A stretch of 56,175 nucleotides of DNA, filler included, from Sphacelaria rigidula (taxonomy: Eukaryota): assembly GCA_964200075.2 (NCBI GenBank). It is 4 parts of 4 records of this genome, joined end to end, with 100 filler letters (N's around TTAATTAATTAA, not from the genome) between each part and the next. Parts side by side here need not be neighbours in the genome. Positions count along the whole stretch, not along the records: positions 42,209 to 56,175 come from CAXNAA020002543.1; 3 more parts are not named here. The stretch is one strand, 5' to 3'. This document shows, piece after piece, positions 27,810-56,175 of this stretch (position 1 is its first letter; each line of letters opens with the position of its first letter). The notes below the pieces were generated by a model. It saw only the letters and a program-made list of their open reading frames with translations, had not been told where the DNA came from and did not search any database. The translations under genes were made by a program, and so were the position numbers.

Positions 27810-28040
27810 TGGTGAGGCAGTGTGTAAGCCGTGGCTGTCTCTGGAAGTGGCGATACCAGACAATAAAGCAACTCATTGGAAGCTGTCATCCTCGTCCAAG
27901 ATAATCAGTAGGCTTCGGGCTGCACAGTCTTAGCAGGATGCCGCTCACCCTTCATACGACTCGCCGATAACACCACGGTGCTTCACACTTGGTGGTTGAG
28001 TGCGAGCCTGGTCCGGCGGAGACCCGGCGTGCTCCGTCCC
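27810..28040 (+). mobile_element. SINE-like family X, copy C (3' end cut by the contig edge)
   Basis: TGGTGAGGCAGTGTGTAAGCCGTGGCTGTCTCTGG...GGCGTGCTCCGTCCC; sits directly after a C-run. A further fragment begins contig 3 (28141-28173). Confidence 0.8.
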
Positions 28041-28140
28041 NNNNNNNNNNNNNNNNNNNNNNNNNNNNNNNNNNNNNNNNNNNNTTAATTAATTAANNNN
28101 NNNNNNNNNNNNNNNNNNNNNNNNNNNNNNNNNNNNNNNN
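28041..28140. other. Artificial contig-join spacer
   Basis: Same N/TTAATTAATTAA linker. Confidence 0.98.
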
Positions 28141-28478
28141 AGCCGGGACGGAGCACGCCGGGTTCTCGCCGGATCAGTTGCTTGGGGGGGGGGGGCGGTG
28201 CAAATTATACCACATAATGCATTCTTTGTCCAAAGCTTGTGGTGTAGTTGTCGCTGTTCACATAACATGTGAAGCACCATGGCGATAGGAGAATGTGCGA
28301 AAACGCTTCACGTATAGCCACCATAGTTGTGAGTTTTTCGACGTTCGCAGTACAAGGGCGAAAGTAGCATACATCTAGTCAACTGATGGTCCCAACATAT
28401 TTAGAAAAGCCGAGCAATTATACCATGGGAAATACAATAATTTCACGGACGCGCGCACGCTCACCGCGAAAATTAAAG

Positions 28479-34400: not shown

Positions 34401-37400
34401 CAACAAAGTTTTTTGGGGGTTTTTGTCCGTTGTTGGCCCCTCCTCCGGTCTTGTGGGGNNNNNNNNNNGGGGATCCTGCCTTTCTGCAACGATGCGGTGG
34501 GGTCGCTTGGCCCTTTGTTCGCGGAGGGATAGCTTGGCTGGGTGGGGGGGGGGGGGGGCGTACTCAGAACCCGATATAGTTTGTATGGTGATTTCTGCCG
34601 CTTGTGCGCCCTACTTCGGACTGTGACGGTGCTTGGGTGAATTCTGTCGCACGAGGTGCCCACGCGTCGCCAATCCGTGGAACGAATATACTTGATAATG
34701 TTTTAGTGGCTCAGTCACATGACTCGCATTCTTCGTCGACTTGGATTTCGGCACGCCAATACTTTGCGTCGTGAGTACTGATGGATGATCGATTCACTTG
34801 TGATTGATTATCGCACACCTACTGATCCCCTTGGGGATCCCGCCGTGGTCGGAGGTTAGGCGTACCCAAAGCGAACAAACACACAACAATAACACTCGCT
34901 GAAGAAAACTCGAGCGAGACCAAGAGAAGAACAATGAACAAACGGAGTTAATGACCAAAAGGGAGAGACGAACAAACAAAAACACAACTATATATATATA
35001 TATATTCAGAAGAAAAAGAACGGAAAGGAGAATACCGTGAGCCGTTTACGAAGATTCTGCGACCAACGTGGCAATTATTTTTTCGTTATCCAATATACTT
35101 GTTCCAAAGCACCCATGTCGCTGTGCTTTCCCCCTGGTCCTCATCGTTTTATTCCCATGCACCACCGCTCGTTGCCGATCATGATACCATATCACCCGGA
35201 GATTCGAGCGGGGGAGTCAGTAAAGTTCGTGGTAAAGTTTACCAGTTCGAATACGGTAACGCTCGAGCTTCCGCTGACCTTCGAGACGGTCGGAACCGGC
35301 AAGCGTCATCAGCTTCACATCTCGGGACATTGTACACTCCCTTCTATCAACGCCGACCCGCGCAACGTGTTCATGAGGCGCGTCAAGCATAGAGCCGAGG
35401 GAAGCATACCGCCAGTCAGTAAGAGATTCGTTATTTCCCGTGGGGAGTACGAGTTCGGGCCGCTGTTGACCTGGAAACGGGCGGAAAAAAGGCGAGATTG
35501 GCGTCCAGAAGTTTGTATATCTCGGAGAATGCCTCGCTTGGAGTTAAAATATGGATTATGTGTAGTAATATCACAATCAACTTGGTCTCGGAGGGAAAAA
35601 TTGTCGTATTCTCTGCGACGTGGGGCGTCTTTTTAACAGCAGTGAGCAGACTGTTCATCGCTGCCCCCATAGCTCGAAACGGCAGCATCATCTTCTCGGC
35701 AGTGGTTGGTGCCGCGGCCGTAAAATTTAGCGGCCACGTATTTATCTTGTGCAATGATGATGACTCCTCTTACTTGTGTGGTAATTAGTCACTCGAATAG
35801 AGTAGATTCCATGCTTGACGTTACACATCGAAGTATCTGCGGCATTGAGTTGTACGTGTACAAAAGATGATGATTTCACTCGTTCCCTGTCCGTCCCCCC
35901 CTGCCCCCCTCAATGCTCCGTCTCGAAAGGGATGCGTGGTCAATGGTCAAATGACTAAGGCAAGCAACAAATGAGTACGCCCCCGCTCCCTCCCCAAACA
36001 CAGACATCTACCGCAGTCTGCAAGTAACGAAAAGGCAAGCCCAGGCGGGGGCGCAAGCGAGGGTGGGCGAAACCTCCTGTCCAAGCACGTCACACGGCAA
36101 GAGGCACACGCCGCTCTGGTGAAGACCAACTCCGATACGTTCCGTCTGTCGAACGACGGTCGATTTCCGGCGAAGGTGTCATTTGCATTCGAGAAGCAGT
36201 CGCATGTAAGTCAGAGGGGTGGACACATACAACGACGGCCCGGGCAGAAATTTTCTCGATTTTCCTGCTGCAGGTTAAGCGCGCCCCGGGGGTTTCCCTG
36301 GTGTGGCAATCGTTGATCAGGGCGGAAGGTGGCGGGTTGACTGACATCCCGGCATATATATATTTTTTTTGTTTCTTGCAAAACTTGGCACTGTCTTTGA
36401 ACGCATGGGGACGCAAGTAATAAAGCAAATTTTCGACGAGCGTCGACGTGGTGCGGCAGTGCTGATGCAACCCGCGGTACTTGATCGTGAGCTAATTACC
36501 CGGGGAGGTATGGGTGGGATCCCTTGGAACCGCGTGCTCCTCCGGAGGAAGGGAAAGGGTTCAAAGCGTCCCCAAGAATAGATGTGAAGCGTGCAGTGTG
36601 TTTTACGTGAGAGATTGCTACGAAGATTAATCCTCCGCGGAGCCGTGTGCAGTTTGACAATACAATACATGAGCGCGAGGAGGTGTTTCGTGTGCCGGCT
36701 TTCGATGTCTATAAGACATGAATAGCAGAAACTGCAGAGTGGATTTCAATATTTAAAAGCGCCTCGACCAACAAAACAGTGGTTTCCCCGACCTAAAACT
36801 AATGATGCCTAATGTCGGTTTTGTCAGCCTAATGCAACCTCGATCACGTGGAAACTATTTCAGCGCCTTTCGCCGATTCTGTGAGTCCACAGCGCTGAGT
36901 GCAAGCGTTATTTTCCCGTCAAATTGATCACCCGAAGTCGGCGCAAAACGATGATTTCGCTCAGCACTGTGGGACTACAGAATCGGTAAAAGACGCTGAA
37001 ATAATTTCCACGTGATCGAGGGACACTAGGCCAACAAAACCGTCATCGGGGATGGTCCGTTCTGGTTTGGGGCACGCTCTGTTTTGAGTTCGAGACATTT
37101 TTCAAGATTGAAAGTCATTCTGCAGCTCGGGCTGTTTATGGTACATGGAAAAAGTGTTACGTTTCTTATGATGAGCATTGAATGGGGGATATTTGAAAGA
37201 GTACTGCTGGACGGATGCAACGACGCCACACGCAAGGGAATGGCACACGAAAACGATGCGACTAGGACTTGTGACCCATTCTAATTGAGGTGCAAAATCT
37301 GTCTTGATAATGGGAAAATTTGTTGCGGTAGGATTTTTTCTGCCTCAGTAAAATTGCATGCGTACATTCGACGATATACATAGTCATACTCCACACGAGG

Positions 37401-38761
37401 GTGAGCACATCCTTGCTCGAGACACGAATTGCTTTCAGCGCATGTAGCACGTGCTCCGCATCAACGGCGGGGTGCAGGATGGGCACAAAAAGGCCACGGA
37501 CAGTCATGATCTCTTGCGCTTACATTGCGTCTTCCGGCGAGCAGCCAACCTTGCCCACTTGTTTCCATTCGGTTGTCCATCCGACACGTCTCTTGGTCGC
37601 CACATGTTTGCTACAACAAGAGCTTTAATATGGTGTGTTTGGGTATGGGGCGCTCACGTTTGGAGTCATTCAGTGGTTTACATGATAACTGAAAACCAAC
37701 TGTAATTCGAGTGCCGTGCGTCGAAGTAAGATATTTAATCTGGGATACACTCATCTCGTGTTGCTCTTCAAACCTCCTCCCAGGAAAGTAAAGTCAGAGG
37801 TTCAATGGATGATTATGCAGCTGCCACGGCGGCCGCGACAGTCGCAACTCCGGTTGGCGGGGAAGCAGGCGGTGATGGCGACATGGCCTCGACCGGCGCT
37901 TCAAGAAAGAAGGTGAGATCATCCTTGTGCCGCCGAGAAACGTTGTCGATACCCTCTTCTTATCGGTATGAACGAATTTCGCCTAAATCGATTTCAAGCT
38001 GAGTCTCGAATACAAACGAACGCAAACGACCTTGCACAAGTGGAGCGCGCCGGCACGTTAGTGTCATCCTGGAGAAAAATCGATCTGCGACGATTCTCGG
38101 GGTAGGAGGGTGCAACTGGTACTCGATCTGTTTTACCCTGACGGCCCTCCAATGCATCGCCTGGCAAGTCGATGCTGACTCATTACTACCGACGTAACTG
38201 GGGGATCTCACAGTTTCGCGTATTTGAGCGTTTTTATTCTTCGCAGGAGTTGGTGCCGTCTCCCCTCCCGCGGCTCAATCGTTCGGGAACTGGTCGAGTA
38301 TCCTTTCTATGTTAGTCACCGTGTGTGTTGTCATCCCATCTATTCTAGACGCCGGTCCACACTTTCCGGTATGTGTGGGCGCATCAGCCGGGGTCACACA
38401 GAAGGAAGGTCAACACGGGAGTTTTTTCGTTTTAATTTTTTTCAAGTACCCCACCTTCCTTCTGCGGTGCTCGCCTTTTTTTTTATCGCGAGACGAGTTC
38501 AGCCGTCCCTTTCCCTCGTCGACCGTTAAGTCGAATTTCGTGTACCCACGACATAGTCGCTCTCCACTGTCGGGCATGGTGTGAGAAAAGATCCCAGATC
38601 GCTCCCAGAACTGAACCCACGACTCAACCGTCAGAAGGTTTCGAGGTTACCAATTGAACTACCGGGGCGACCAGTCCCCATGAATGAAATGATGACAAAG
38701 AAAATAGAAGACCAGTCGAACTGTTAGGTTAGTCTGGCGGTTTTGCGTGAAGGTGGAATCC

Positions 38762-38828
<67 letters not shown>

Positions 38829-39917
38829 CCTTGCTCTACGATCGGAAACTTGCCGCTCGATGTGCAAAAACTATTTCAAATCATACCTATCACGGGCGAT
38901 TGGTTCAAACATCCTAGGCAACCCCGGGTCATGTACTCAGTGAGTACCGCTCTTCATGTACATCGCTAGTTTCTGCTGCCCATCACTCATCTCGCCATAA
39001 TCGTCGCAAAAAACACTGTCGGATCCGGAATCGCAGACGTTCTACGTCGAGCCAGAGACTATAGATCTGGCCATTGGGGAAACGAAGGAGATTCGGGTCT
39101 GGGCCTTTCCAGCGGAGGTCAACACGTACAAGGTCAGGGCGTACTGTATTTCACGGCGTGCCGTGCTAATCAGGGCCCAAACGAAGTGTCTCACGGCTGT
39201 TCTCTACTTTCAGTTACATCTTTTCCAGCGGAGAAGCTTGTGTCTCGAACGCCGATCTCTGCTTCAACAAGTCTCCGCGATAGCGTTCTCCGAAACGAAA
39301 TCCCAGACGGGGTGTTCGGCCCGCAAGTACGAGATCTATTGTTGAGGATAATTTTTTTCTAGTCTTAGTACCCCCCCCGCGTGATCAATGGTCGAACGAC
39401 TAAGGCAAGCAACAAATGAGTACGCCCCCCCCTGCCTCCCTGCTCTGTCTCGAAAAAGATGCGTAGTCGATGGTCGAACGACTGAGGCAAGCAACAGATG
39501 AGTACGCTCCCTCCCTATCGCTATGCACGTACAACATAAGAGTGTGTTTGAACCGTTGAGCGGAAATAATGCAGGCGAGTCGAAGCTCCGTCCCGTATTA
39601 TCCCGCTCTCGGGCACGACGCTAACCGTGTGTCCTTTCGGCCTATCTTCAGTATGTCTTTTTTCCCTGCACTCCTGCAAGCAACCCGCGAGTACAACAAA
39701 CCCCCAATCCCTAGCCAAGCCAATGGGTGCAACCCCAACAATAACCGCACCTCATTTGCAGGACACGCTCATTGCATGTGTGACGGACAACCCCCGCCCA
39801 GTGCTGTTCCCGGTGTCGTGCTCCGGCGCTGCACCGAAGGCGGTCGTGGAAGGGCCTTGGGATGGCGCCTTGTCGAGAGAACGCGCTGCTCTTGAAGAAT
39901 TGCGTGCTAGCCTTGAG
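28479..39917 (+). CDS. HYDIN: HYDIN axonemal central-pair protein, internal part; exons 28479-28879, 30192-30462, 30973-31104, 31908-32116, 32799-33780, 35202-35510, 36017-36205, 37784-37912, 39037-39132, 39762-39917
   Basis: Hydin ADK-like VPSDLLTEVLRWRLAKPDCDRGVIVDGLNSRFA; YRWV|IRAGESVKFVVKF..TFETVGT..GHCTLPSINADPRNVF..KRFVISRGEYEFGPLL; TFYVEPETIDLAIGETKEIRVWAFP; DTLIACVTDNPRPVLFPVSCSG. Phases are consistent throughout. Confidence 0.88.
29010..29207 (-). mobile_element. Possible second tRNA-derived SINE
   Basis: Minus-strand head GCACCACGGTGGCCTCAGGG (A-box-like)...GGGGTTTGATCCCCGCCAGGGGCG (T-arm/B-box-like); single copy in the window. Confidence 0.4.
31143..31691. mobile_element. Tc1/mariner-type MITE (549 bp) in a HYDIN intron
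   Basis: TA|CAGTAGTCGGCGGTCTAAC ... GTTAGACCGCCCACTACTG|TA: 19-bp TIR with 1 mismatch and a TA duplication. Confidence 0.85.
34798..35030 (-). mobile_element. LINE 3' UTR remnant
   Basis: Minus strand: T-rich tract, then CCGACCACGGCGGGATCCCCAAGGGGATCAGTAGGTGTGCGATAATCAATC. Confidence 0.6.
35914..35995 (+). mobile_element. 3'-end fragment of the C-tailed LINE family
   Basis: TGCTCCGTCTCGAAAGGGATGCGTGGTCAATGGTCAAATGACTAAGGCAAGCAACAAATGAGTACGCCCCC, nearly identical to 56065-56140. Confidence 0.85.
36812..37046. repeat. Long intronic foldback (~90-bp arms); MITE or hairpin RNA
   Basis: CCTCGATCACGTGGAAACTATTTCAGCGCCTTTCGCCGATTCTGT (36838-) is inverted against ACAGAATCGGTAAAAGACGCTGAAATAATTTCCACGTGATCGAGG (-37021); pairing extends outward. 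Confidence 0.85.
38321..38672 (-). mobile_element. tRNA-derived SINE (same family as 25969-26327)
   Basis: Collinear along its length; head GGTCGCCCCGGTAGTTCAATTGGTAACCTCGAAACC. Confidence 0.85.
38764..38826. repeat. (TG)n microsatellite
   Basis: About 31 TG units. Confidence 0.97.
39379..39515 (+). mobile_element. Two tandem 3'-end fragments of the C-tailed LINE family
   Basis: ATGGTCGAACGACT(A/G)AGGCAAGCAACA(A/G)ATGAGTACGC occurs twice, each copy followed by a C-rich tail. Confidence 0.85.
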
Positions 39918-42108: not shown

Positions 42109-42208
42109 NNNNNNNNNNNNNNNNNNNNNNNNNNNNNNNNNNNNNNNNNNNNTTAATTAATTAANNNNNNNNNNNNNNNNNNNNNNNNNNNNNNNNNNNN
42201 NNNNNNNN
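42109..42208. other. Artificial contig-join spacer
   Basis: Same N/TTAATTAATTAA linker. Confidence 0.98.
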
Positions 42209-42294
42209 CCCCGGCTGATGCGCCCACATATCCCGAAAGGGGTAGACTGGCGTCCAGAATAAATGGGACGACAACACAAAAAACACACACACAC
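42209..42294 (+). mobile_element. 3' end of a tRNA-SINE at the contig edge
   Basis: CCCCGGCTGATGCGCCCACA..GGCGTCCAGAATAAATGGGACGACAACAC(AC)n is the reverse complement of 38321-38394. Confidence 0.8.
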
Positions 42295-42425
42295 CAGGGA
42301 CACATCGCTCACCGACAATCGAACTCAACCAAAAGTAGTGGAATGCAATCTCGGGGCTTGTTGATCACACCTTCGGTATCACGCAGCGCGACAATTAATC
42401 GCTACTTCTAGCCTTTTTCAACCAG

Positions 42426-45400
42426 TGTTCGCCGAAACTGCTCGTGTTGCTACCACCGCCGGCCGACACGTTCGCAGGTGGCCACTGGTGAATCATTTCA
42501 CCATGCAAGACGTGTTGCGGCTAAGCGGCCACCGTTTGGACAACAAATCACTCAAAGAGCCCATGGATGTCCAGGAAGCTATATCGGCACTCCAGCATAC
42601 CCTGCGCCTAGTCGTGCCCGCAACCGACCGCGAGCTCGAGCATGACGTAGCTATGATGCTACTCCAACAGTGGCTCAGGCCAACAACGCTCGATAGCAAT
42701 GGAGACGAATCCAATACAGGCGAGGTGAGCACCGAAGTAGTTGAAAATATACTCGACAGCTTCGGCGTAGCTCTGACCTTTGCGCTGCAGCCACAAAATT
42801 ATTCAGATGCCGCGGGTTGCAACTATGGACCCACCGCTGCCGCAACGCGGAACGTACCCGCACTCCTACCGGAAACGCCTCACCTATGGGACCCCCTGGT
42901 GGCTACCAAAACGACATTCGCCGCGAATACTAATGCCGCAAAGACGATCGAGAGTCATAATCTCCGCAGCAGCGATGATGACAGTGGAGTTGGTCTTAAC
43001 CAGCCAGGTGGTGGCGAGGGTACGGGCGGTGGAGGGCAGTGTGTATTCGCGGCATGCACTGCGGGGCGTGAAGAAGTAATCCCCACCGTGCTCTCCCTGT
43101 ACGTGAGGAGGGGTCGGCTACCGCAACCCGGTGAAATAGTGTTTTGCACATCCAACACTACCGAGGAGGAGTTGGATCTGGTCGTGAGAAGATTCGCCGC
43201 GCGACGATCGCAGACAGCCGCCGCCGTCCGTGCTGGAAGTCGAACATTTACCGGTGTCGCTGCGGAGGACGGGCTTGGGGAGAGGAGTGGGGTGGGGTTG
43301 GGTGCCTGTGATGCCGATGAGGGAGTCTTCGTGATCGCGGATGTACATCGCCTATCGTACAGTACCCAGTTTGAGCTTCTTGGGCACTTGCGGTCTAAGG
43401 TGTTGGAGAATGATGGAGAGGACACATTTACCGGCGGCGGTGGGTTGGGTGAGGGCGGCAAAGGTTCCAGGTAAACATGCTACTTGTTCTTGTTCGATAT
43501 GACTGGAGAGAGCTGGTGGCTGGTAACATTTTCGATGGAATCGTTTGTTAGGATGTTGCCGATCGTGGTTGCTACTTGCAGCAATTGCAGCAGCGTACCC
43601 CAGAGGAACTGAGATGAGTCGTGTGCGAATACCTCAGAACATACCCATTGCCGTCCCACTTTCCGCTAGAGCAACCTGCGAATACATAATCCCTGCCGCC
43701 TGAATCACCAGGCTCGATGAACGTGACAACGGCCCCGATCGGGTGGCGAGAGGAGCGGTGTTGCTGGTGATATCTGGTGAACCCCGACAAGCCCTGTTGA
43801 GCTGGCTGAGCGGGCACATAGTGGAAGTGCCGCCACTGCCTGCGGACGCTTTAAGGAAGGCCGTCTCGTACGCCCTCGAGAAGCACTACCGAGGTAGAGC
43901 GTAGGTTTTGGCGCATTGTAGGGAAAGAAAACGGTATGTTGTTTCGGCGTCATAATGTTGTGCTTCTCTCAGATAATCGGTACTGGATGGGCATATCCGA
44001 AACGTTTTCGCCTTCTAGAGATACTGACGCTCGACGAAGAACACGCGGGTGATCGTAGATACCTCGACGTTAACCTGAGCGTGGACATTGTCATCTCCAC
44101 GTTTGTGGCGAAGTTGGAAGTGTGAAAACAGTATCCTATTCAAAACACCTCACCGCAACGTGGATGTTCAATCATCCATCTCAAGGCACCCTAATGGTCA
44201 CGTATGCAGTCTCGCCGTTCCCCAGTCTGTGAGATATGAAACGGTGTGGAGTCCTGAAGCACTGGGCATAGGTGCAGCGACTAAAATCGAATGTGGGAGG
44301 TATTGATCCTTTCCCACGAAATATTCCGTGCGGTAGAGCTGGTAAGATTGAGTCGCTGCCTGAGAAAACCTGTCATGCGTGCCGGAGCCTTGTATCGCGC
44401 GGGTCCGAGACTTGCATATGCGACTAAGATCTTCGCGGTCGCCCTAACCAATAACACGGCGGCGCTCTCAATATTCGTCCGGGATGGGTGTGGCGCAGGC
44501 GATTCAGACAGCGGCGTTCAAGAGTAGGGTCTGAACGACTTGCGTGTGCCTCTACGTTTCTGTAGGTACGACTATGGCTGTTCGAAGTGACACCAACGGA
44601 GGCGGAAAGACTCACTACATCATGAAGCAGGTGGGGCGTCCCGTAGGTTCGATGAGTGACTCGTGACGTTTTCCGTGAAATGCCTTCTTGACCCTTCTCT
44701 AGACAATGAAGAGATAAGCACGGACTTTCTAACGCGCGTCGTCGCCGACGCTGAAGTTTGATCCTCTACGGTTGACGCGGGTGTACGTTATATCCCACGC
44801 TTGTAATACTTTCAAAGGTCCCGCCTTTTGCAAGATTGACAAGTCGCTTACACAAACTGAAACGAGGTTAATCCTGTGATTGCCAGGTGGGTCATCTGGG
44901 TCATGGCGATATCACATGTAAAATATGGCCCCAATTCAACCGCTGACCTACTCTGACGGTCAAAGGACCCACGAACTGTAATACAGCCTGCGTGCATCTT
45001 TCATGTACGTTTCCAACATGGTGATACCTTGCGACGGTGGGGAATGCGGCTCATGTGGGACAACCTGGACCGACGCTCACCTGTTTTGCTATCGTCTGCC
45101 ACGGATACGGTGCATGGCTGGCGCAGCCAAGGATGCAGTCAGCCGATGCTGCTAGCATCCGCCATCTTCACAAACCGTTTATGTTCATGTTTGAGTGCAT
45201 TGTCCTGTTCGTAAAATTACAAGGGAACGCACACGATACGGACCAGCCGTACCGTGCAAACTGTAGAACGTCTACGATGCATGCCAAAATGGTTCCGATT
45301 CTCCTCCCTATGTGCATGCTCCCACTGTCATTACGTGCGCGCCATTTTTCAGGCAGCAACCTCCGTTGCCCCACAATACGTGCGAATGCCCGTGGGAGAG

Positions 45401-48400
45401 TCGTTCACACCCCGAGACCTTCACCAGGCTTTGGAATCTGGAGCGGCTAATCCCGCGACACCGCGCGCAGTTCATCTCGATTTAGGGCATGTGCCCCCCA
45501 CAGACTGCAACACGTTCCTCTTCCAGCTCCTCATCGAGGGCTGCGTCCGGTGAGGAGCAATGCTACGGTAGGGGTGCAGTTTTTGCGCGCGAAGTCTTCT
45601 CTGGTTCAGGGGCTCCTCAAGATTCTAGATGCACAAGAACATGGGTTAGGGCACCCCCGTTTGCAAATTCATGTGGGACATCCCTAGCAAGAGGGGCTAG
45701 GATTACTAGCGTACTCTCACATATTTTAAAAGCCGTGTTTTGGACGAGATAAAGGGCTCCTAACAATTCTAACCTCAGAAAATATTCGTGCACGCCTACC
45801 GTAGCATCCCTCTGAGACGTAGTATGTATGTGAAGTCAACCAAACATTTTTCGTCAGCCGGCACTTCTCCGATTCATCGGATTTTGGAACAGTTTGGGCG
45901 GTGCACAAGCATCGCGTCAGAGGTTTCGCAGGTGTTGGCACCTATGCATTCCCGACGTTGTTTGCTTTGTGAGATAGTATCTCTCTCACTTCATATCTCG
46001 TCTCACTATCTGGTGTCCTGGTTCTCATGCTCTTGACATCCAAGTATAGAGAGATCCATGCTGCACACGTACTACGATTGTATCCGAAGGCGTTTGCCGG
46101 ATCACATCCGCCTGGACGCCTACTATGGGTACTTGGTGTCACATCGAGGTCCGCCAGGAAGGCTACTCCTCCCTGGGGTCTTTTCTAACCAGCCCGTGTT
46201 TGTAATGATGTGAAGGCATGGTACATCCTTTCTCAGTGAACGCTCGCCAAGGATCGTGCTCATACACCATCGCGTACTCCAACACCTCGCAGCAAGTATT
46301 CAATGCGTGCGGACAAACGATGAGCGTGTTCGAAACATTTACTCGACGATACTCGCTTTCGTGGCAGGGATCCACTTACGCGAGATATTCTGGCACGAGA
46401 ATCTGAGGATCTTTTTTTCGTGGAAGTTCCTAACTCGGAGGGCGACCGCGTTGCTGAGTCTCTACACTTCTGCCACCTTTTGCCGACGGTGATGCTTAAG
46501 GTTCGTGTGACCACATCATAGCAATTATGACATGGACGTTTTCAATTACCACGACTGTGCCGCCTGGCATTAAGATTTTACTATTTCAAAGAAATGTTAG
46601 GGAGTGCTCTACCAGTCATGAGTTCACTATGCTTTCGGTAATGAAACAATATTCTTCCCCGCGATCGGCGTGTCACTCCGGTTCCATGTAAGGTCCCCAC
46701 CGAAAGGGGGCGAGGGCATCTTTTGGAGTCACCCGTTTCCATTTTCATTCCCTTGGGCATTGTCCACGGAGCTTTTTTCTGTATGTGAGTCGTACTTCAT
46801 ACATGCATGAGAACAATTCCCTACCCCGAGTTATGCACTTTAACCGCACAATCGAAAATATCTACGCGCGAAAAAACACGCTAGGGAAAACTCGTGCATA
46901 CTTGCTGTACGTGGACGGCTAACTTCCCGCAGCGAGTGGACATTGTAGCAAGCACCATGTTACGGAGACCCGTCCTGACGCCCGCATTCCATCGTTTGTA
47001 CTCAGATTCGTCCGCAACCCTTTTTGTATTTAACAATCTCGAACAAGAACAGGTGGAACCAAGCACTCTTGATATGGAGGTAGCCGAGATTGTGGAGGAT
47101 TCGGTGCAGCTGTCGCCTGATTGTGACCTGGAGCGGGTGTACCGCTGGCTGAGGTGATAGTTATTAAAGCAAGACACCCCCCTATCGGCTGGCTGCTACG
47201 CCGAATGCCCCGTTGCCTCTTCACTACGCCCTCCTCCCGCCGTGAAAGATCCGTCAAGTCAAGTACACTCAGCGAAACGTTGAAGGCATGACGTGGCGTT
47301 TTCCGGCAGCGAAAGTAGACGGTGACTTCCTAGTAGGGCTGTTGATCCTTCCTCAGCGTACGTTGGCGGATATGGCATGAAGAAGTTCGCGAGAAATGTC
47401 TGCACCCTGCATTGTTGTAATGTGTTTATGACCAGATTCATTGCCGACCACCTGGGCCGTATCACCGAACGTGTTTTTACGTTTAGGGCTGTGAAGAACG
47501 GTGACCTTTTACCGGACAGTCAGGGTCCCGACCCCGCCGCCGGGCAAGAAGAGCACGAAGTTGTCGAAGACGCTTCCCGCAATGTGCCGACAGACGAGTG
47601 CTTCCAGCTGCTGCAACACTGCTGCTGTGTAACGGGCGAGTATGCTGTGTTCCTACTAGACTGCCGTATTATCGACGAATCGGTCGTGTTCCAAGGGCCG
47701 TCTTTGGCGTGATATTTTCCCGATAACCATAATGCATTTGTCAGCGATATGGAGCTTTCTTCCGAATATTTGGACGTCACCGTGTCCCGCCGTTCCCAAC
47801 TTGGTGATAGTTGAGGTTTCCAGGTGTGGTATATCTGACGCCACCGCAGTCGAACATAGCTAAATTGATCCCGAAATCAAGGAAAAAGCAAGAAATATTA
47901 TCAAACGGCCCTCATACGCCTTACAAAGCGATAGTGACCAATTATATATTTCTTGCTGCCTGCGGGTTGGTTGACGCGTGCGCATTGTGTTTGCCTTGGA
48001 ACTCGTACCCATCCTGCGTCATCCTGCGCCTTGCTCGTATATCTCATCGGAAACACGACTTATGAAGTTTGTGAGAGTACGCCAGGATCGCTAGTATATT
48101 ATTATGGGGATATCCCGAATGAGTTTTCAAACGGGGGTGCTCTGACCCGTATTCTTGTGGATCTAGAATCATTAGGAGCCCTTGACTCAGACAAGAGTTT
48201 GCGCAAAAAATGCATCCCTACTGTAGCATTGATCTTCGCTATTTTGCTGCGGTATTGATTCAAGTACCAATACCCATTACTCTGCCTGACAGGCGACTCG
48301 TGCCACCGCCGATCGCTCCACGTGACCCTTACGTTCACCGTGGCGAAGTAACGGTGCGAGTTTCTTTGGCGTGTTCTACCTGACTATCTACAGGGGGGCC

Positions 48401-51400
48401 ATCTGAACGACCAACTTGGGCGATCTTCCGCACTTTTGTAAGACTTCTTTCACACCTATTAGGGAATGTGGAGCGATACCCGCTTCTGGCTGCGGAGGTG
48501 GCCCAAAGAAGTCAGCACGAGCACGGACTTGAGACTTTCAGGTGTGGAAATGCTGACTGTCTCGCAGGCTTCCCCTTCAGTTCGTCCGGGAGTTCAAGTC
48601 TTGACCGACCTGAGATGGCTCATCACCGCAAACCAGACGCTGAAGCTAGGCTATCATTGAACCCGTAAAACTAGATAGGAGCAGTTGTGATACATCAATA
48701 CCAAAATGACTTGGGCGTCATCCATGACTTGTTGACTGGAACCTAACGAGTGGTGGTTGGACAACTCAACGCGTGGATGTCGGCACGGTTACCCCTTTCT
48801 AAATCGACGTAGTCTTGACTGGGTCTTTCCCCGAAGGGGCGTTTACGGAGGAGCCGTTTTACGCTCAAGGTGAACTTCATGGAACACTTTGGACTTTGGT
48901 TGTAGAGGAGAGATGAACCAATTATTTGTTAGAACAAACCGACTGTCCATTCCCCCCAAACCCTTGCCCTGCTCCTCATCTCGTCCCCCCATGCTGCTCC
49001 TGGCTGTTTCATCAGGGATGTATTCGTCAGGATACTGATCGAGTGCGCCAAAGACTTCTCGCTGCGCTCAGTTCCGCAGGTGTCTCTAGTGTCTTGCGAC
49101 GGATCCGAGCAGGACAAGATTGTGGGGGCGTATAGGCAGGCAAGTTCGAGAGAACACCGGGCTGAGACGAGAAGGCCGCGATCATTTTCCCAACTTTCCA
49201 TATTCGCCTCGCCTTCCGGGCAGCCTTCAGATCTATCCATAGATCGAACAACTGGGTACATGGCAAGTGGGACCGAACCGACCAAAACAGTGCACGAAGG
49301 CGATGATCATAAATGCGGTTAAAGCTGGTTTCGTGCTGCACGACGCGACGTATTTGGGCGTAATAGTAAATTTCAAACTGCTCCACGCCTCTCATGTGGG
49401 CGAAATTGCTGGAAACGAGCCCAAAAGTGGGATCGCAGCCGTTTTGTCGCACCGTCTCACGTGCACTTTTTGTGGAGAGGCTATCTCGGCATGAGTCCTC
49501 TGTGGAATATCTGGTGTACTGGATTGACTAAAACCAATGCTTGGAGTGCAGAAATGATGACATAAATCCAGAGTGTATCTCTTCAATCAAAGTCAAACTA
49601 AAGCAGAGTTGCCCGTTTCCCCTGAAAGCATTTTCCATTTTATTTAACAGCTGAACCGACACACGTCGTGCCTGGCGCAATGACAAACTCGTGAAGGTGC
49701 TCCCCGACGTTGAAGCTACTACAAGGGATTGCTATCGCCTTGCCGCACGTTTTCAAGCAATGGCGGGAATGTCAGATCACCCCGTGGTGGTTTTCAAGGC
49801 CGAGCGAAGAAACGGCGTGCGCGAAATCTCGGGCATCGACATCCTCAGCCTAAACATCCACCAGAGGTACTTCATGGTCACAGTATCATGACAGGGCGGT
49901 TCACGCGTTCGCATTGTGCGGACACGTTTTTTTTAGTGAGGTCAGAGATAATACATTTTAATGGAAAGAAAGCTTGTGTTAGTAGTCTGGGGCAGGTATT
50001 TCAAACGTGCGTTGTGAGCAACAAGCATAATACCTTCCATGATAGTGTATAAAGTAGTTTTGGGGGTAGTGGAGCAGTCGACGTATTTGTCCAAATCCCC
50101 GGGGAGAACGAGAGGAGGTAACTGCATCAAGTGTAGTGCGCAACTGATAGCAACAATGACGTCAGCAAGCACACGTAGATCACCCTTGTCGAAAGTCGTC
50201 GAGTGCGAATTGAAGAAGTGCAAATCTACTGGTACTTTCCTACAACAACGCTGAGCGTCTTACTCCCCTGCGACTAATGTTACATATGTTGTTGATCTTG
50301 GTCGCCAGACTCGCGGACACGTTTATCGAGGGCCCCCTCAAGGAAACCCTCCAGATTAACGGCATCGATCTTAGCAAGGACTGGACTTCTATCTCTGGGA
50401 GTGAAGGTGCGATATTTGCGGTTGCGGTCCAGGTGCGAATTGAGTGATTCTACGGTAGGGGTGCACTTTGTAATGCGGAATGTTTCTGAGGCTTCACACT
50501 GCGGTCCAGATGTTTGTCATCGAGAGGCTGCTTAAGTACTGAGCCTCAGAAGAACATCTTGTACCCCCCACCGTAGAACCACTCACTTGTACAAAGGGAG
50601 AACGGGTTCGACCTTTGGTGTCTCGTGCCGTAACCCCGTCGGGCTACCGCTGCTTCCGTTGACCATCGTGGTATCATGTTCACTATATGACCGGACATTC
50701 GCCTAGAGCTGCGCAAGTGCCTTGTTGAGGAATGGTAACTTGCGCGATCCATTGGGCCGTCTACGGTACTGGTTGTGAGGTAGTATGTCGGTATTGACCG
50801 CAGCACTACTATCTTTTCGTTGAAAACTCCGCGCGTTGACGCATACTGTACCAATGCACAGCATACCTCGCGTGTTCGCAAAGTACCACTCTTAAGACTA
50901 ATGATCGAATTATTCGTCGATGTTGCGCACACGGTACCTATCCTATTTTGTCTTCGAAAAGCCGTCAGCTTACTCCGAGATATCGGTGGTGTTGCCGGCA
51001 ACCAGCAAACAAGCCCTGACTCCCAAAAGGGTATGGACTACGTGTTCACTCTGGACAACCTCCTCAAGATGCTCGGTATTACGCTACGTTTACAGGTACG
51101 CCGATGCTTCGAGATAGCTCAACATTATTCAGCAGGCTTCAGCGTTACAACAATGCTTGAAGTTACGAAAGATGTCGCCCCTGACGCTGCACGTCTTCCA
51201 ACGTTGTGGATAGATATACAACTATGCCAAATTGCACTGTAGCGCATTGGACGCCAGATACGCGGAACCCTGTATCTTCGCGAAAACTCCGATTGATGCA
51301 AAAACACTCTTCTTCCTTCCATCTGGTCTATTCATATCATGTGCCAGCTACTCCGACAGCGCCAGGGAGTAGCATCAGTATTTTTTCAAATATATACACA

Positions 51401-54400
51401 CCCACTGGCCCCGGAGTTACTTAGCATTCCCGAGGGTTGCTGTCAATGCGATGTCCGGCTGTCTGACGTACACCGATTCACCACGAATTTGGCTATGTTT
51501 TGAAGACGGACGCACCGAAATTAAACAAACGGATAGTAAAAAAGAGGAAGGCAGAAACAAATAACAGTAACGAAACCGTAACGAAAATGAAACGCGTTGT
51601 TGCCTGCTAAACCCATCAGGCTCGGATGCCCGTGGTGATATCGGGGGAAACTGGCTGCGGGAAGTCTAGCCTGATTTCTTGTATGTGCGACATTCTCGAG
51701 TGGCCATTGGACGTTCTCAACGTGCACAGCGGCTTGTCCTACGCGGATATTGCGGCATGGGTGGAGGAACGCGCGAAGGCTTGCGCTGAAAGGGACTTGA
51801 AGGACGACGAGCGTGTTAGCGTTATTTTACTCGATGAAATCAACGCATGCAGTAGCGTCGGTAAGATCGAGTCGGCGGATGTTTTATGTTTTCGTTGACA
51901 AGAGTGCGTGGCGGAAACCTTGCACGCGGCAGGATTGGTGAATACTCTGAAAGGCTTACATCATTCTCACACAGCAGGTCGCGGACTTGTCATCGACCTC
52001 GGCGTTACCGTAAACCTTGTGGGGGTTGAACAATAACGTTGATCATGTTGTAGCAAAATGGTGTATTGGAGAGTAATCTCGGCAAAAGCAGATGATCTAC
52101 ATCTCGCTCAGATGACAACGTGACTGTAGATATCAATTTCGATACATTTCGCGACTCCCACCACTAGTACGACTACTGTTGCGAGAGATTCACCTCTTCG
52201 GATCACAACGTAGCTTTCCAACGGCGTTTTGGAGCGCTCGCGTTAGACTGCGGGAATGGGTAGCTCATATTTTCCTTCGAAGCGTGCGTGGGATGCGGTA
52301 CTCCTCACAATGTAATGTTTTACCGGCGGGTGTTGGCGTTTCGTCTTCAAGTTGCGTCACATCTACTGTGCCGTGATGTCGAGGCTCCCCACTCAATGGC
52401 TCTTCCGTCCTGATCACAGTCTTAGCACCACCATACCGTTCGCGATTGCTCCACTTACCTCCGTCGATACAGACCTTTTCAAGGAAATTGTCTGCGACGG
52501 CACTGTGCTAGGGAAGCCACTCCCGCGGAAGCTTCGCATTGTGGCCGCGTGCAACCCCTACCGCATGCGGAAACGAGTACATGCTGCTGATGACGAGGCA
52601 AAGGCCAGGGTTGAAGAAGTGGGTGTGGTTGGTCTTGCCAGCGGGGTATGCGACCCACGTCGGGTGAGAAGTAGCAGTCTATCATGTATCGTGCGTTTGT
52701 GTGACGATTCGACCTAGTACATGCTCTCTTGCGGGCTAACCAACCGCTATAGCATTTATTTGTCCCTATTTACTGTACCGCAACGATAATCACCACACCT
52801 TTCAAGGCAGGTGCGATTGTACCCGTACAACAGGTCGGTTGGTCGTGTGTCTGCTGCATTGCGTAGGTGATGCGTGACACTTCCAACTCTGTGCTCTGCC
52901 GCAGAAAACGTTGTAGTAGATAGCAGTTCCTTTCAGGCGTGACGATCGATATCTTTGCAATGATAGATAGCAGTTCCTTGCAGCGTAACAAGAGGTCCAT
53001 TCGCTGTCCCCATCGGCCTATATTAGTCGCCTGTGGAAACGAGTGTAAAAGGACCAGGTGTTTTAGGCTATCCTCTCATTTCGCACGGAATTCCTGTCGA
53101 ATTCACTCACTCATCTATTTTGGCGTTCAGCGGTTCCGCGACATATGACGACTCCATTTATTTGGCTCTTTTGTGTATCTCGCTGTGATCAAAGTGCGGA
53201 GCCATGTGATGTAAGTCATGTCCCTGCACTCTGGATCTCTCTTTCTCACGCACACTCACTGCGATACCGTGCAACCCGTCAGTAAGTACCCAGTCATCAT
53301 GGGCTCACCACCTCTTGAGGACGATCGTGAGCACAAAATTCTACCGCAAAAATGTACTTTTGAATGTCAGGAACTGGTGTATCGCGTGAATCCACTTCAC
53401 GAAAGTCTAGTGGATCACGTTGCGGACTACGGGAGCCTGTCGCGTGAGACGGAAGGGATGTATATCTCGGCCATGCTCAAGAACCTCATGAGGGACGAAG
53501 CCGCCGGTATGCAGTCGATTGACGAACGCGTACAGCGTTTGATGTCGTTGAGATAGTCCTCTATTAAAAGCATGACAGCCGATTATTGAAATTGAGGATG
53601 GAGTTTTTCATTGAAGATGAGAACCCGGACAGTCAAAACCTTGGTATCCACACCAAATCTTCGAAATATGGTCTCACTCCTTCACCTATTGGTGAGTATT
53701 GACAAGTAGTACTTGTCAAACGAATTGTGATTTCGATCACCGAGTCCTAGATGAAAAAGCAATTTGAGGAACTTTAGGTGATCCGATTCACCGTGGACCC
53801 CAATATTTCAGTTATCGAAATCCAAATTTGTAGGGCGTGTAGCAGTTGTCATTAGGTACTAGCAGGTGAAGAAAGGAAACTATAATTCGAAGATTGGGTG
53901 TTGATACGAGGATTTTAATCATCCGAGTTCTCATCCTCAATGAAAAGCTCCATCCTCAATTTCGATGATCGGCTGTTACATCAACACGGGGACTGAGTTA
54001 CGATATGTAAGTGACTAACTGATCCATGTACAGTTTTCCGTTGCATTTGCTGGTGCTGATGGACGGAGGATTATGGATGCCAGCAACGTCTTCAAGTACA
54101 AGTGAGAAGTGCCTACATGAACCCAATATCCTCCTATCGACGTATCAACGAACGACACGTGAGTCATGGCAACAATTGTTGCCTGGGTAGATAACATGTT
54201 CCGGCAAACACCAGCGAAACAACACCAAACCATTCAAGATTATGGTATTCATCTTGAGTGCATGCCAGAACCTGGAAGTATGAGTTCTGAAGCGTTGGCT
54301 TTCCGACATCCCACACAGGAGCCACGGCCTGGGAGTCGGGCAACTCTGGCGAACTACAGAACGTTTTCGCCAAGTGCCTGAGTACAGCGCAGGAGAGTGT

Positions 54401-54464
54401 GCGTGCAATTCACGGGGGCGAGCGCGCCACAGTGTCTCTTCGAGACGTCAATCGTTGCATCAAG
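42426..54464 (+). CDS. RNF213: RNF213/mysterin-like giant AAA+ ATPase, internal part; exons 42426-43470, 43712-43893, 44566-44630, 45353-45549, 46368-46500, 47053-47153, 47487-47635, 48394-48541, 49016-49079, 49697-49866, 50309-50406, 50962-51095, 51620-51860, 52473-52645, (52807-52833), 53371-53506, 54319-54464
   Basis: Collinear RNF213 motifs: LPQPGEIVFCTSNTTEEELDLVVRRF; ADVHRLSY; SDTNGGGKT; VHLDL..FLFQLLI; PTWAIFRTFVRLL; AKDFS; HPVVVF; YVFTLDNLLKML; PVVISGETGCGKS..NVHSG..ILLDEIN; FKEIVCD..IVAACNPYR; LVYRVNPL..DYGSL; VSLRDVNRCIK. All exon phases are consistent. Confidence 0.88.
45566..45801. mobile_element. TA-flanked MITE, family CGGTAGGGGTGCA
   Basis: TA|CGGTAGGGGTGCA ... TGCACGCCTACCG|TA; inverted partial copy at 48050-48223 and a short copy at 50453-50573. 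Confidence 0.82.
48050..48223. mobile_element. Inverted partial copy of the same MITE family
   Basis: Reverse complement aligns to 45566-45740 (GCACCCCCGTTTG, CTAGAT.CACAAGAA, GCGTACTCTCACA). Confidence 0.78.
50453..50573. mobile_element. Short (121 bp) copy of the same MITE family
   Basis: TA|CGGTAGGGGTGCA ... TGTACCCCCCACCG|TA. Confidence 0.72.
53575..53976. repeat. ~400-bp intronic foldback element (arms ~170 bp)
   Basis: ACAGCCGATTATTGAAATTGAGGATGGAGTTTTTCATTGAAGATGAGAAC.. is inverted against ..GTTCTCATCCTCAATGAAAAGCTCCATCCTCAATTTCGATGATCGGCTGT. Confidence 0.88.
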
Positions 54465-54825
54465 GTGAAACGCATGTTGGTAGCCAGCGCAAATGAGGAT
54501 TACCGTGGGTTTTTCCAGGTCAGATCATCAATCGCAACCCCCTCCCCGCGTATTGGCCAGCGCCCGCGAGCTATTCTGCACTTCAGGCCATAGCACTCCC
54601 CCCGCGCCCTCCCGTTCCAAGAGTCAGTACAGCACGATGAACCATTTTTCGTCGACAGGATTCCGAGCATATTCAGAACGAAGTGCAACCCTAAACGCAC
54701 TACTTCCGTTTGAACTGCGGCCACCTACGAAAGCCGTAGCATTTCATGCGAACTTCGATACGGGCGATCAGGCCGCATCGTCAACTTGTGGAGAGTGACG
54801 ATATCCTCCCATCCTCCGCCCCGGC

Positions 54826-54891
54826 TTTGCAGGGATACTAGGTCAACGGTCACATGACTATGGCATGCAAGATCATGAGTACACCCCCCCC
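54826..54891 (+). mobile_element. 3'-end fragment of family X / C-tailed LINE type, directly upstream of the LINE
   Basis: CAACGGTCACATGACTATGGCATGCAAGATCATGAGTACACCCCCCCC matches the 3' end of 23304-23616. Confidence 0.7.
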
Positions 54892-54894
54892 TCG

Positions 54895-56175
54895 AGAGGA
54901 GACAAGCAAATATAGAGACGTCAAAACGGGAAGATAGTGGCTCGAGAGAATTGCAGGAAGAATTTACCATATATGAAGTTAGGGGGTGCATAGCGAAACT
55001 CAAGGACAGAAAGGCAGCAGGGGCAAACAAAATAGTGAAAGAGTTTCCAAAGTACGGGGCAGAAGGAATTGTTACTGTGATGGTTATGCTGTACAACTGG
55101 ATATAGGAAAACGAGTACACATCCAAGAGGTGGAGAGAAAAAGTAGTCGTGGATGGTTTCATGAACGGAGACAGGGCTGACCCAGGGAACTATGAAGAGA
55201 TAGCCGAGCACGGCAGGGAAATCCTTCTGTGAGATTCTGAACGATAGAGGAGCAACGATGCTAGAAAAGGACGATAGAACTAGCGAGGGACAAACAGGTT
55301 TCAGACCAAACCGTAGTTACGTAAAACATTTGTACAAACTAGGTAAGATTATCCAAGGTAGGAAAGACGCCGGGCTGACAACGTACTGTTTCTTTCTGAA
55401 CGTGCAAGAGGCTTATGACACAGTATGGAGAAACGAGATGTGGAGAATGGTGAAGATGACAGAATGTGCCAAAAGTGCGATGATGCTAACCGGGAAAATG
55501 CCAAAATATTTTGAAACCTTGCAAGGAGTTGCGCAAGGATGTATGTTATCATCCACTTTATTCCAGGTTTTAATTAATGACCTGATGATAACAATAGAAG
55601 CAGCAAAGCAAGGGGTCAAGGTGGGGGAAGATTTGATATCAGGTTTGATGTTCGCAGACGATTTTGTGGGGATTTCAGGACCCGCAGAAGGAGTGCGGAC
55701 ACAGATAGAAAAGGCGCTGTAACACACTAGGAAAGGGAGATTGACAGAGGGAATCCGGATGAAAACATATCTGCATGAACCAATGGACGCGCGAAAGGTT
55801 TAAAACTGCGATTCCGGGTGGGGGAATTGGACCTGTCAGAAAGAAGAAAGAGGGGGAAATGCTGGACGTGAACGAAGGTGGCACAAAATCGTTTCATGCA
55901 TTAGACAGTGGCGGGAAAACGATGGTCACGTTAGGAGATAGATGGTGGTCACAGACGGCGAAACAGGACGGGGATAATATAGGTAGAAGGGTTTCGTGCA
56001 ACGAATGGAAGAAACGTATTGAGCACCTAAATGTTGGGTGTGTCTCTGTTAGGAGTAGGAACGGTGCTCCGTCTCCGAAGGGATGCGTGGTCAATGGTCA
56101 AACGACTAAGGCAAGCAACATGTGAGTACGCCCCCCCCTCCCCCCCCCCCACCCCCCGCCCGCCCCCCCCCCACC
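54895..56175 (+). mobile_element. Non-LTR retrotransposon (second LINE family), 5'-truncated and internally deleted, ending in a C-rich tail
   Basis: KLKDRKAAGANKIVKEF, DPGNY, EGQTGFRPNRS, FLNVQEAYDTVWRN, QGVAQGCMLSSTLF, LMFADD; C-terminal LGDRWW..KGCVVNGQTTKASN* followed by poly-C. Confidence 0.9.

Follow-up and report, generated by a model that had tools for sequence, protein, structure and literature searches.

Positions 42209-56175 of the window (the whole 56,175-nt stretch of DNA that was analysed) probably contain the middle section of a gene that is native to the nuclear genome of a brown alga and encodes a giant RNF213-superfamily ATPase, a reading to which we assign a probability of about 0.8 on the basis of sequence comparisons. 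The segment comprises the end of the linker region, a degenerate AAA1, AAA2 and AAA3, equivalent to the first three units of a six-membered, dynein-like AAA ring.

Sequence context

The window consists of four unrelated pieces of ~13,970 nt each, which are joined by N44-TTAATTAATTAA-N44 linkers. The gene is located on the last piece (42209-56175), which begins with a repeat and ends with a LINE. The features surrounding the exons are as follows:

42109-42208: linker N44-TTAATTAATTAA-N44, preceding the gene piece
42209-42278, unstranded: high-copy repeat that opens the gene piece, recognised by read depth, with loose ends at 42278
45552-45751, unstranded: intronic repeat with an inverted copy at 48040-48237 (76.5% identity), both within high-depth bins
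54791-56175, + strand: high-copy LINE-type retroelement (Pfam RVT_1, E 8.6e-13), with a depth of 300,000 to 1.5 million

High-copy retroelement sequence thus adjoins unique sequence at both ends. The depth was ~230,000 in the bin 42209-42674 vs ~30 in unique sequence; it exceeded 1 million at 42241 and 42253 and was 51 at 42449 and 42499. The reverse transcriptase frames of the LINE-type element span 54879-55722, and the element reaches the end of the piece, lying either inside the intron that follows exon 16 or at a point where it truncates the gene. The long introns of the gene piece often contain retroelements. Hydin (28-39 kb) was considered as an upstream neighbour, with a nested or truncated gene, but this reading was dropped because the linkers separate the pieces and show them to be non-contiguous.

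Gene model

The exon model was built by tblastn with gathered relatives in combination with an enumeration of GT and AG sites, so that its splice junctions are predictions. It comprises 16 exons on the + strand (42428-54464) with a total of 3189 nt, corresponding to 1063 codons without a stop, and all 15 introns (241-818 nt) have GT..AG borders. The sequence-only reading had proposed about 17 phase-consistent, stop-free exons; the series is indeed stop-free and spliceable, and the count is corrected to 16. The outer limits proposed there coincide with an AG acceptor (42426) and with the position directly before a GT donor (54464). The exons are:

42428-43470, + strand: exon 1, end of the linker region and start of AAA1; possible acceptor at 42426, frame open from 42365
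43130-43195, + strand: GEIVFCTSNTTEEELDLVVRRF, within exon 1
43712-43893, + strand: exon 2, AAA1
44566-44630, + strand: exon 3, AAA2 P-loop NGGGKT (44595-44612)
45353-45549, + strand: exon 4, AAA2, HLDLGH (45473-45490)
46368-46500, + strand: exon 5
47053-47153, + strand: exon 6, located by gap fitting against the relatives instead of by tblastn
47487-47626, + strand: exon 7
48394-48541, + strand: exon 8
49016-49079, + strand: exon 9
49697-49866, + strand: exon 10, acceptor uncertain (alternatives at 49716 and 49726)
50309-50406, + strand: exon 11
50962-51095, + strand: exon 12, with YVFTLDNLLKML (51039-51074) leading into AAA3
51620-51860, + strand: exon 13, AAA3 Walker A GETGCGKS (51644-51667) and Walker B ILLDE (51824-51838); Pfam AAA_5, E 3.8e-07
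52473-52663, + strand: exon 14, sensor-I AACNPYR (52544-52564) and start of a loop at the position of RNF213 IR3
53371-53506, + strand: exon 15, AAA3, LVYRVNPLHESLVDHVADYGSL
54319-54464, + strand: exon 16, SLRDVNRC

Exon 7 had been placed by tblastn with a start at 47449; this start was replaced by exon 6 (47053-47153) together with an exon 7 beginning at 47487, an arrangement that is gap-free against the relatives. The chosen acceptor of exon 10 (49697) reads AAG, and its pyrimidine tract is weak. A second in-frame donor is located at 54518, up to which exon 16 may extend. Over the initial ~200 codons of exon 1, family likeness is weak (VNHFTMQDVLRL; best E 0.0036 among 34 sequences), and residues 233-283 of the exon-1 frame match residues 1797-1849 of mouse RNF213 (E 0.008).

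In tblastn, all 28 long relatives matched the exon carrying the Walker motifs (exon 13), each relative contributing up to nine collinear + strand pieces within 43040-54479. Because of this agreement, and because scores of up to 516 bits were reached by the spliced protein, the exon series, judged by these sequence matches, is not a product of chance.

Assignment to the RNF213 superfamily

The spliced protein was compared by phmmer with 255 gathered proteins, of which 243 gave a match. Giant proteins of protists scored 332-516 bits and were collinear over ~860 residues (residues ~203-1063), eight named animal RNF213 proteins reached 107-137 bits over 265-545 residues, and three named midasins obtained 27-35 bits, with no single stretch at E < 0.01. 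When a family profile was built from the gene model and 25 relatives (855 positions), all eight named RNF213 proteins scored 328-362 bits; seven of them cover the profile from positions 23-40 to its last position (855), and the eighth begins at position 71. The scores of the midasins (48-98 bits) were confined to positions 599-686. Solved structures were searched with a profile made from ten relatives, excluding the window protein. All nine RNF213 sequences were recovered in one stretch each (E 1.7e-176 to 2.4e-168), with profile positions 33-1481 aligning to residues 1376-2889 of chain 8s24_A. Midasin (3e-21) matched only over 47-residue P-loop stretches, and no dynein was obtained at E up to 0.01 in this search.

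For a comparison of folds, the predicted fold of a 679-aa relative (P0255; mean pLDDT 66.6) served as a stand-in in Foldseek. The first eight ranks went to RNF213 (TMq 0.53-0.55, E 1e-20 to 4e-18), with dyneins following from rank 9; the best dynein had an E-value of 2.7e-7 and a TMq of 0.34, vs 1.2e-20 and 0.54 for RNF213.

Midasin (Rea1) and dynein heavy chains resemble the predicted protein in that a single chain contains several dynein-related AAA units (Pfam AAA_5, AAA_7), and the exons might accordingly be ascribed not to an RNF213-type gene but to one for midasin, MoxR or a dynein heavy chain. In line with this ascription, the Pfam assignments are limited to AAA_5 and generic AAA families (searches with single exon frames returned generic AAA families, and no family for four further frames), and midasin had the best E-value when solved structures were searched with a single exon (7e-14, vs 5e-4 for RNF213). 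This rank was rejected because the score sums repeated P-loop matches, namely six weak ones, the best with an E-value of 0.46. The likeness to midasin is limited to stretches of ~50 residues around the P-loop, whereas RNF213 aligns across all 855 profile positions and across 1450 profile positions in solved RNF213; dynein folds match the P0255 stand-in far worse than RNF213 folds and rank below all eight RNF213 entries. A midasin, MoxR or dynein identity has next to no probability and, as far as sequence and predicted fold can tell, is already refuted. The RNF213-like character proposed from the sequence alone is thus favoured by bit scores, family profile and solved structures over all three alternatives, with RNF213 ranking first in both the profile and the fold searches.

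Catalytic motifs

Both a first P-loop (GGGKT) and a canonical GETGCGKS/ILLDE/AACNPYR unit, noticed in the initial reading, were located in the spliced exons. AAA2 retains the P-loop NGGGKT, has HLDLGH where RNF213 has HIDV, and contains neither an acidic pair nor a Walker B glutamate. RNF213 AAA2 is likewise described, in the available part of PMC7311170, as having a nucleotide-binding P-loop without a catalytic Walker B motif. In AAA3, Walker A (GETGCGKS), Walker B (ILLDE) and sensor-I (AACNPYR) are all present. The lysine of GETGCGKS aligns with K2387 of mouse RNF213 by ungapped counting from the match ranges, which assumes that no gap occurs there; in the accessible text of PMC12075652, K2387 is the Walker A residue of AAA3. 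The proposal that the GETGCGK unit corresponds to an active ATPase of RNF213 therefore agrees with the alignment, if it is ungapped. AAA1 of the predicted protein contains a low-complexity insert of ~30 residues.

Relation to animal RNF213 and protist proteins

A phylogenetic tree was obtained by a quick LG+G4 search with 54 chosen rows and rooted at the midpoint. The gene falls within a clade of 33 protist rows (SH-aLRT 91), and animal RNF213 and Capsaspora form a separate clade (SH-aLRT 94). Its sister is Phaeothamnion (SH-aLRT 98), a grouping in which two long branches meet and which is to be read with that caution. In the tree, the gene thus appears as a member of a protist subfamily and not as an orthologue of animal RNF213.

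The collinear order of linker end, AAA1, AAA2 and AAA3 is common to the gene and animal RNF213 (mouse and human structures, e.g. 6TAX, 7OIK and 8S24), as are the AAA2 P-loop lacking a Walker B glutamate and the Walker A, Walker B and AACNPYR sensor motifs of AAA3. A motif-by-motif alignment with the RNF213 proteins of Jaculus and Nematostella was made, and the motifs YxxTxDNxLKxL, LVYRVxxLPxS and SLRDVxRC are found on both sides. A loop following NPYR occupies the place of the IR3 insertion (as given in the portion of PMC7311170 available), but it comprises ~34 residues in the gene (counted by hand) vs 51 in mouse. The two also differ in that identity to animal RNF213 is ~23-25%, a value taken from the search with the relative P0024 rather than with the window protein, and in that the gene lies outside the animal and Capsaspora clade.

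The best matches, belonging to the same clade, are protist giants that have an RZ finger and in some cases a U-box (Thecamonas AMSG_01915, Amorphochlora, Bigelowiella, a partial Phaeothamnion protein and many metagenome proteins), from which the window copy differs by the low-complexity AAA1 insert. Among 42 relatives of the protist group, Pfam identified an RZ finger in 34, a U-box in 8 and RING families in none. The RZ finger (PF20173) was confirmed in P0024, P0169 and P0020, and in the latter two a U-box lies ~500 residues before it. The relatives also carry the sequence GKPGSSKS, of AAA4 Walker A type, ~250 residues beyond the region of exon 16. The family is already present in databases, and the gene adds a fragment to a known family.

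Host origin

The fragments nearest to the gene come from Sphacelaria, Ascophyllum and Phaeothamnion, and because of this a native brown-algal gene is likely on sequence grounds. Over the Walker exon, identity was 90% to a Sphacelaria rigidula fragment and 63% to an Ascophyllum fragment. A protein word-index search (proteins of at most 2000 residues) returned only one Ascophyllum fragment among longer proteins for the Walker exon, and no match for the exon-1 frame.

It is very unlikely that the piece is an assembly contaminant from a different eukaryote associated with the alga, whether on its surface or inside it. All full-length relatives found are protist proteins or metagenome records, and brown algae are represented among the matches only by short fragments, as might be the case for such a contaminant. 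Against this origin stand the two fragments matching the Walker exon and the sister position to Phaeothamnion, another ochrophyte. An 82-nt repeat (56065-56143) is shared, at 90% identity, with the piece bearing hydin, and the GC3 of the exons (0.62) resembles that of the Rad51 (0.63) and hydin (0.67) exons. Contigs of the DNA run X1 cover the locus evenly at ~30x, with no differences among the eight records listed. The suggestion that dense introns mark a native nuclear gene accords with the 15 GT-AG introns, the brown-algal origin of the closest fragments and the repeat common to the hydin piece.

Completeness of the gene

Full-length relatives comprise ~4000-5500 residues; the piece encodes ~1060, so that roughly a fifth to a quarter of the protein is present. 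Counterparts of the N-arm, AAA4-6, RING, RZ finger and CTD of animal RNF213 lie outside what the piece shows. The gene had been regarded as intact, a view that was not borne out, as the window is made of four joined pieces and the gene is cut at both ends. AAA4-6 would lie beyond exon 16, and no match to the relatives was obtained in 54465-56175.

These findings would also fit a truncated or dead partial duplicate between two retroelement insertions that yields no full protein. The unique sequence is bounded by the repeat (to 42278) and the LINE (from 54791), and the next exon predicted from the relatives was not found between exon 16 and the end of the piece. Moreover, exons 8, 9 and 16 are matched at ~90-93% identity by short contigs of X5 and X7, two presumed RNA runs that bear the same species label. 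Because this identity is only ~90-93%, there must be one or more additional copies or alleles, as judged from the contig sequences. These contigs continue into the introns flanking the three exons and therefore show neither splicing nor expression at the locus; none of the model splice joints was among the 15 joints listed, with 585 further joints beyond that list. A dead copy is nevertheless unlikely, given that the 3189 nt contain no stop or frameshift, that the borders of all 15 introns are preserved and that AAA2 and AAA3 retain all their catalytic motifs. Furthermore, the ends of the piece were set by the cutting of the window into four pieces and not necessarily by the gene, and retroelements are common in its long introns. 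We thus favour a segment from the middle of a longer gene.

Proposed role

By analogy with solved RNF213 and the full-length relatives, AAA2 would probably bind ATP as structural glue, and AAA3, together with an AAA4 located outside the window, would bind and hydrolyse ATP (for the roles of the RNF213 AAA units, see the available parts of PMC7311170 and PMC12075652). The resulting nucleotide switch would probably gate a C-terminal ubiquitin-transfer module built on the RZ finger, possibly with a U-box in place of the animal RING. No E3 module (RZ finger or U-box) is present within the window, and because of this the ubiquitin-immunity reading draws only on the relatives.

A cell-autonomous defence role of the gene is a guess by analogy. 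Brown algae might keep an ATP-gated AAA ring that drives an RZ-finger (perhaps U-box) ubiquitin-transfer module and might employ it, in the way of animal RNF213, as a cell-autonomous sensor and effector coating and ubiquitylating intracellular pathogens or their compartments, a proposal that we consider doubtful. If it were true, ligases of the AAA-RZ type would represent an immune module of ancient eukaryotic origin and not an animal invention.

RNF213 is a Moyamoya disease factor and a ligase that ubiquitylates bacterial LPS, and to our knowledge it has been studied almost exclusively in mammals. In the literature searched, no account of RNF213 in stramenopiles or brown algae was found; the sole co-mention of 'RNF213' and 'brown alga' concerned unrelated work on gerbil ischaemia. 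The gain from the gene fragment alone is modest, the family being in databases, yet undescribed in that literature. Nonetheless, the RNF213 AAA core belongs to a family spread across many protist lineages, some of whose members have a U-box at the place of the animal RING, and the brown-algal copy keeps the AAA2 and AAA3 motifs. Brown algae are an independently multicellular lineage and, because Ectocarpus-type models have known pathogens, would offer a tractable non-animal setting for asking if RZ-finger ligases gated by ATP represent a defence mechanism of old origin.

Gene model

The gene segment is confined to the last piece of the window (42209-56175). With the frame 51611-51898 as query, an exhaustive HMMER search returned 695 proteins at E <=0.001. 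When 28 long relatives were compared by tblastn, the Walker exon (exon 13, 51620-51860) was matched by all 28, with at most nine collinear pieces per relative on the + strand between 43040 and 54479. Exon limits were set by a more sensitive tblastn search and enumeration of phase-compatible GT donors and AG acceptors. The resulting model (42428-54464, +) has 16 exons (3189 nt, 1063 codons, no stops) and 15 introns of 241-818 nt, every one GT-AG, with CAG (11), TAG (2) or AAG (2) acceptors; G+C is 0.571 in exons versus 0.486 in introns. The sequence-only reading had proposed about 17 stop-free exons between 42426 and 54464; the open, phase-consistent frame held, the count became 16, and the limits agree with an acceptor at 42426 and a donor at 54465. 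Two limits are less certain: the exon-10 acceptor, and the end of exon 16, which may extend to 54518. Exon 1 lies in a frame open from 42365, and its first ~200 codons carry a faint family signal centred on VNHFTMQDVLRL (best E 0.0036, 34-sequence set). The related protein P0002 (113 residues) runs past the exon-13 donor into the following intron while still matching window 51626-51952 (78% overall); it was called on unspliced DNA from a close relative, and the intron start after exon 13 is conserved.

Family assignment

Of 255 retrieved proteins, 243 gave a phmmer match to the spliced protein. The top matches were giants of 4000-5500 residues from protists and metagenomes (332-516 bits), collinear with model residues ~203 to 1063. 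Eight proteins named RNF213 or rnf213-alpha by NCBI scored 107-137 bits over single stretches of 265-545 residues, whereas three named midasins scored 27-35 bits, every stretch at E 0.01 or above. With a family profile built from the model and 25 protist relatives (855 positions), the eight RNF213 proteins rose to 328-362 bits, seven spanning positions 23-40 to 855 and the remaining one beginning at 71; midasins reached 48-98 bits, solely via repeated P-loop matches of ~50 residues. A profile of ten relatives, with the window left out, was searched against all solved structures and matched 9/9 RNF213 sequences in one stretch (E 1.7e-176 to 2.4e-168; profile 33-1481 versus 8s24_A residues 1376-2889). 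Midasin followed at 3e-21 over 47-residue stretches and NorQ and CbbQ at ~1e-4, and dynein was absent from the matches listed.

For fold comparison, the relative P0255 (679 residues), which scores 322 bits against the model, served as stand-in; its fold was predicted with a mean pLDDT of 66.6 and a pTM of 0.69. RNF213 filled the first eight places of a Foldseek search with this predicted fold (E 1.2e-20 to 3.6e-18, TMq 0.53-0.55), followed by dynein-1 from rank 9 (E 2.7e-7), with no midasin among the matches listed to rank 50. The proposed RNF213-like core was thus borne out by profile and fold against both midasin and dynein. Midasin or MoxR as best match, which the sequence-only reading had named as evidence against itself, was checked for, and RNF213 came out ahead in the spliced-protein, profile and fold comparisons. 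A midasin identity had also been raised by a single-exon search (midasin E 7e-14 versus RNF213 5e-4) and was rejected, since the midasin value adds up six P-loop matches that are each weak (best E 0.46).

Encoded units of the RNF213-type ring

PMC7311170 places the linker of mouse RNF213 at 1291-1774 and the AAA core at 1775-3405, and describes AAA1 as devoid of Walker motifs, AAA2 as binding ATP but lacking Walker B and sensor I, and AAA3 and AAA4 as the only competent units. According to PMC12075652, K2387 serves as Walker A residue and E2449 as Walker B residue of AAA3. The exon-1 frame aligns to mouse 1797-1849 and the Walker exon to 2374-2464, so that the GETGCGKS lysine, counted from the alignment ranges, equals mouse 2387 if the match is ungapped there. 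All four motifs read from the raw sequence (GGGKT, GETGCGKS, ILLDE, AACNPYR) were found in spliced exons.

Motifs of the window protein and their RNF213 counterparts
44595-44612, +: NGGGKT, AAA2 P-loop (RNF213: GVGRS / GVGKS)
AAA2: HLDLGH, without Walker B glutamate (RNF213: HIDV)
51644-51667, +: GETGCGKS, AAA3 Walker A (RNF213: GETGCGKT)
51824-51838, +: ILLDE, AAA3 Walker B (RNF213: LFFDE)
52544-52564, +: AACNPYR, AAA3 sensor I stretch (window IVAACNPYR, RNF213 IIAACNPYR)

Mouse RNF213 carries the 51-residue IR3 insertion where the window protein has a loop of ~34 residues. The aligned motifs and the mouse coordinates show that the window encodes the linker end followed by AAA1, AAA2 and AAA3, half of an RNF213-type ring in which the AAA3 site is complete. 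In relatives, a GKPGSSKS Walker A lies ~250 residues beyond the window's coding end; this would be AAA4, outside the window.

By analogy with solved RNF213, AAA2 would keep ATP as a tether to AAA3, and AAA3 with AAA4 would form a nucleotide switch rather than a processive motor. To judge from relatives, this switch could govern a transthiolating RZ-finger ligase, possibly assisted by a U-box. According to PMC12075652, RNF213 transfers ubiquitin via a Cys/His pair of the RZ finger, turned on by ATP at AAA3 and AAA4, and the RING is dispensable for transfer. A role against intracellular pathogens is a guess.

Protist relatives and their E3 domains

A query with the corresponding part of the related protein P0024 listed 100 proteins, the best 42 of which (E <=3e-99) constitute the protist group. 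Pfam assigned an RZ finger (PF20173) to 34 of these 42 and a U-box (PF04564) to eight, with RING families in none; UBA, UBA-like or WWE domains occurred in some. Among the 100 matches listed, RING families were confined to proteins named RNF213. In two relatives, P0169 and P0020, the U-box lies ~500 residues ahead of the RZ finger, roughly where the RING sits relative to the RZ finger of mouse RNF213 (RING 3940-3999, RZ catalytic Cys4462). It looks as if the E2-docking domain had been swapped within the family, U-box for RING; this pattern, observed in the protist relatives (the E3 region of the window's own gene would lie outside the window), is the more interesting by-product.

A quick maximum-likelihood tree of 54 proteins picked to represent the groups (716 alignment columns, LG+G4 model, midpoint-rooted, SH-aLRT as the sole support measure) paired the window with a Phaeothamnion protein (support 98) inside a 33-member protist clade (91). 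Animal RNF213 and Capsaspora formed another clade (94), as did proteins of Glomeromycota, Branchiostoma and Dendronephthya (100). The sister pairing is not secure, because the program flags the window and Phaeothamnion as meeting long branches. P0191, a protein of 5630 residues labelled 'ATP-binding protein [bacterium]', has an RZ finger and nests in the protist clade; either its contig is eukaryotic and was misassigned to a bacterial genome bin, or the gene has been transferred.

Protist and fungal members are already in public databases under uninformative names, and a literature search found no paper on genes of the RNF213 type from brown algae or other stramenopiles. A preprint (10.1101/2025.10.14.682297) traces the RZ domain of ZNFX1 to unicellular eukaryotes.

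Origin and integrity of the locus

Linkers (44 N, TTAATTAATTAA, 44 N) at 13971-14070, 28041-28140 and 42109-42208 split the window into four pieces of ~13,970 bases each, and the Rad51 and hydin genes are therefore not neighbours of the gene at 42209-56175.

Genes in the other pieces
12597-13220, -: Rad51 exon (Pfam Rad51, E 8.4e-48)
~28.4-39.3 kb (28368-39342), +: exons of hydin, a flagellar central-pair protein
28368-28880, +: weak Hydin_ADK match, hydin gene
34938-35633, +: frame matching Chlamydomonas hydin 2515-2607 (E 5e-11)
39001-39342, +: frame matching 9ijj_4G residues 2909-2951, hydrocephalus-inducing protein (E 9e-4)

An 82-base repeat at 56065-56143 recurs with 90% identity at 35914-35995 in the hydin piece, and exon GC3 is 0.62 (RNF213-type gene), 0.63 (Rad51) and 0.67 (hydin); by these measures the pieces seem to share one genome. 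The closest proteins to the window frame are short fragments: one from Sphacelaria rigidula (87% across the whole frame, rising to 90% within the Walker exon and falling to 72% within exon 12), a further one at 88% identity and one from Ascophyllum nodosum at 59-63%. Phaeothamnion belongs to a class neighbouring the brown algae. Since fragment matches, Phaeothamnion, common repeat and codon composition agree, the source is likely a brown alga near Sphacelaria, and the earlier view of a native gene rather than contamination is likely right. In contigs of DNA sequencing run X1 the locus has a depth of ~30-fold, and the eight records listed do not differ from it.

Unique sequence begins at ~42279, right after a repeat, and stops at ~54790, at the start of a LINE-type element that reaches the piece end (reverse-transcriptase frame 54879-55722, +; RVT_1 E 8.6e-13; depth at least 300,000). 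A truncated gene copy bounded by these repeats is possible, although the frame is open throughout; a working gene is favoured by the absence of stops and frameshifts and by the retained splice sites and catalytic motifs. The term 'intact' was too strong for a segment with such bounds and with AAA4 onward outside the window. Read-depth bins place high-copy repeats in introns 4, 6, 8 and 14. An inverted 200-base pair in introns 4 and 7 (45552-45751 / 48040-48237, 76.5% identity) is a dispersed element, as both copies fall in high-depth bins.

Contigs from two small runs that bear the same species label match exons 8, 9 and 16, together with a few bases of intron, at ~90-93% identity (48418-48557, 48985-49093, 54309-54442); a further gene copy, a diverged allele or a different strain could account for this. 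Elsewhere, a single repeat family occurs at several piece ends (14071-14254, 27813-28040, 23376-23617), piece 2 ends and piece 3 begins with sequences that share a 19-base inverted match, and a LINE-type reverse-transcriptase frame was identified by eye at 17215-18072 (-).
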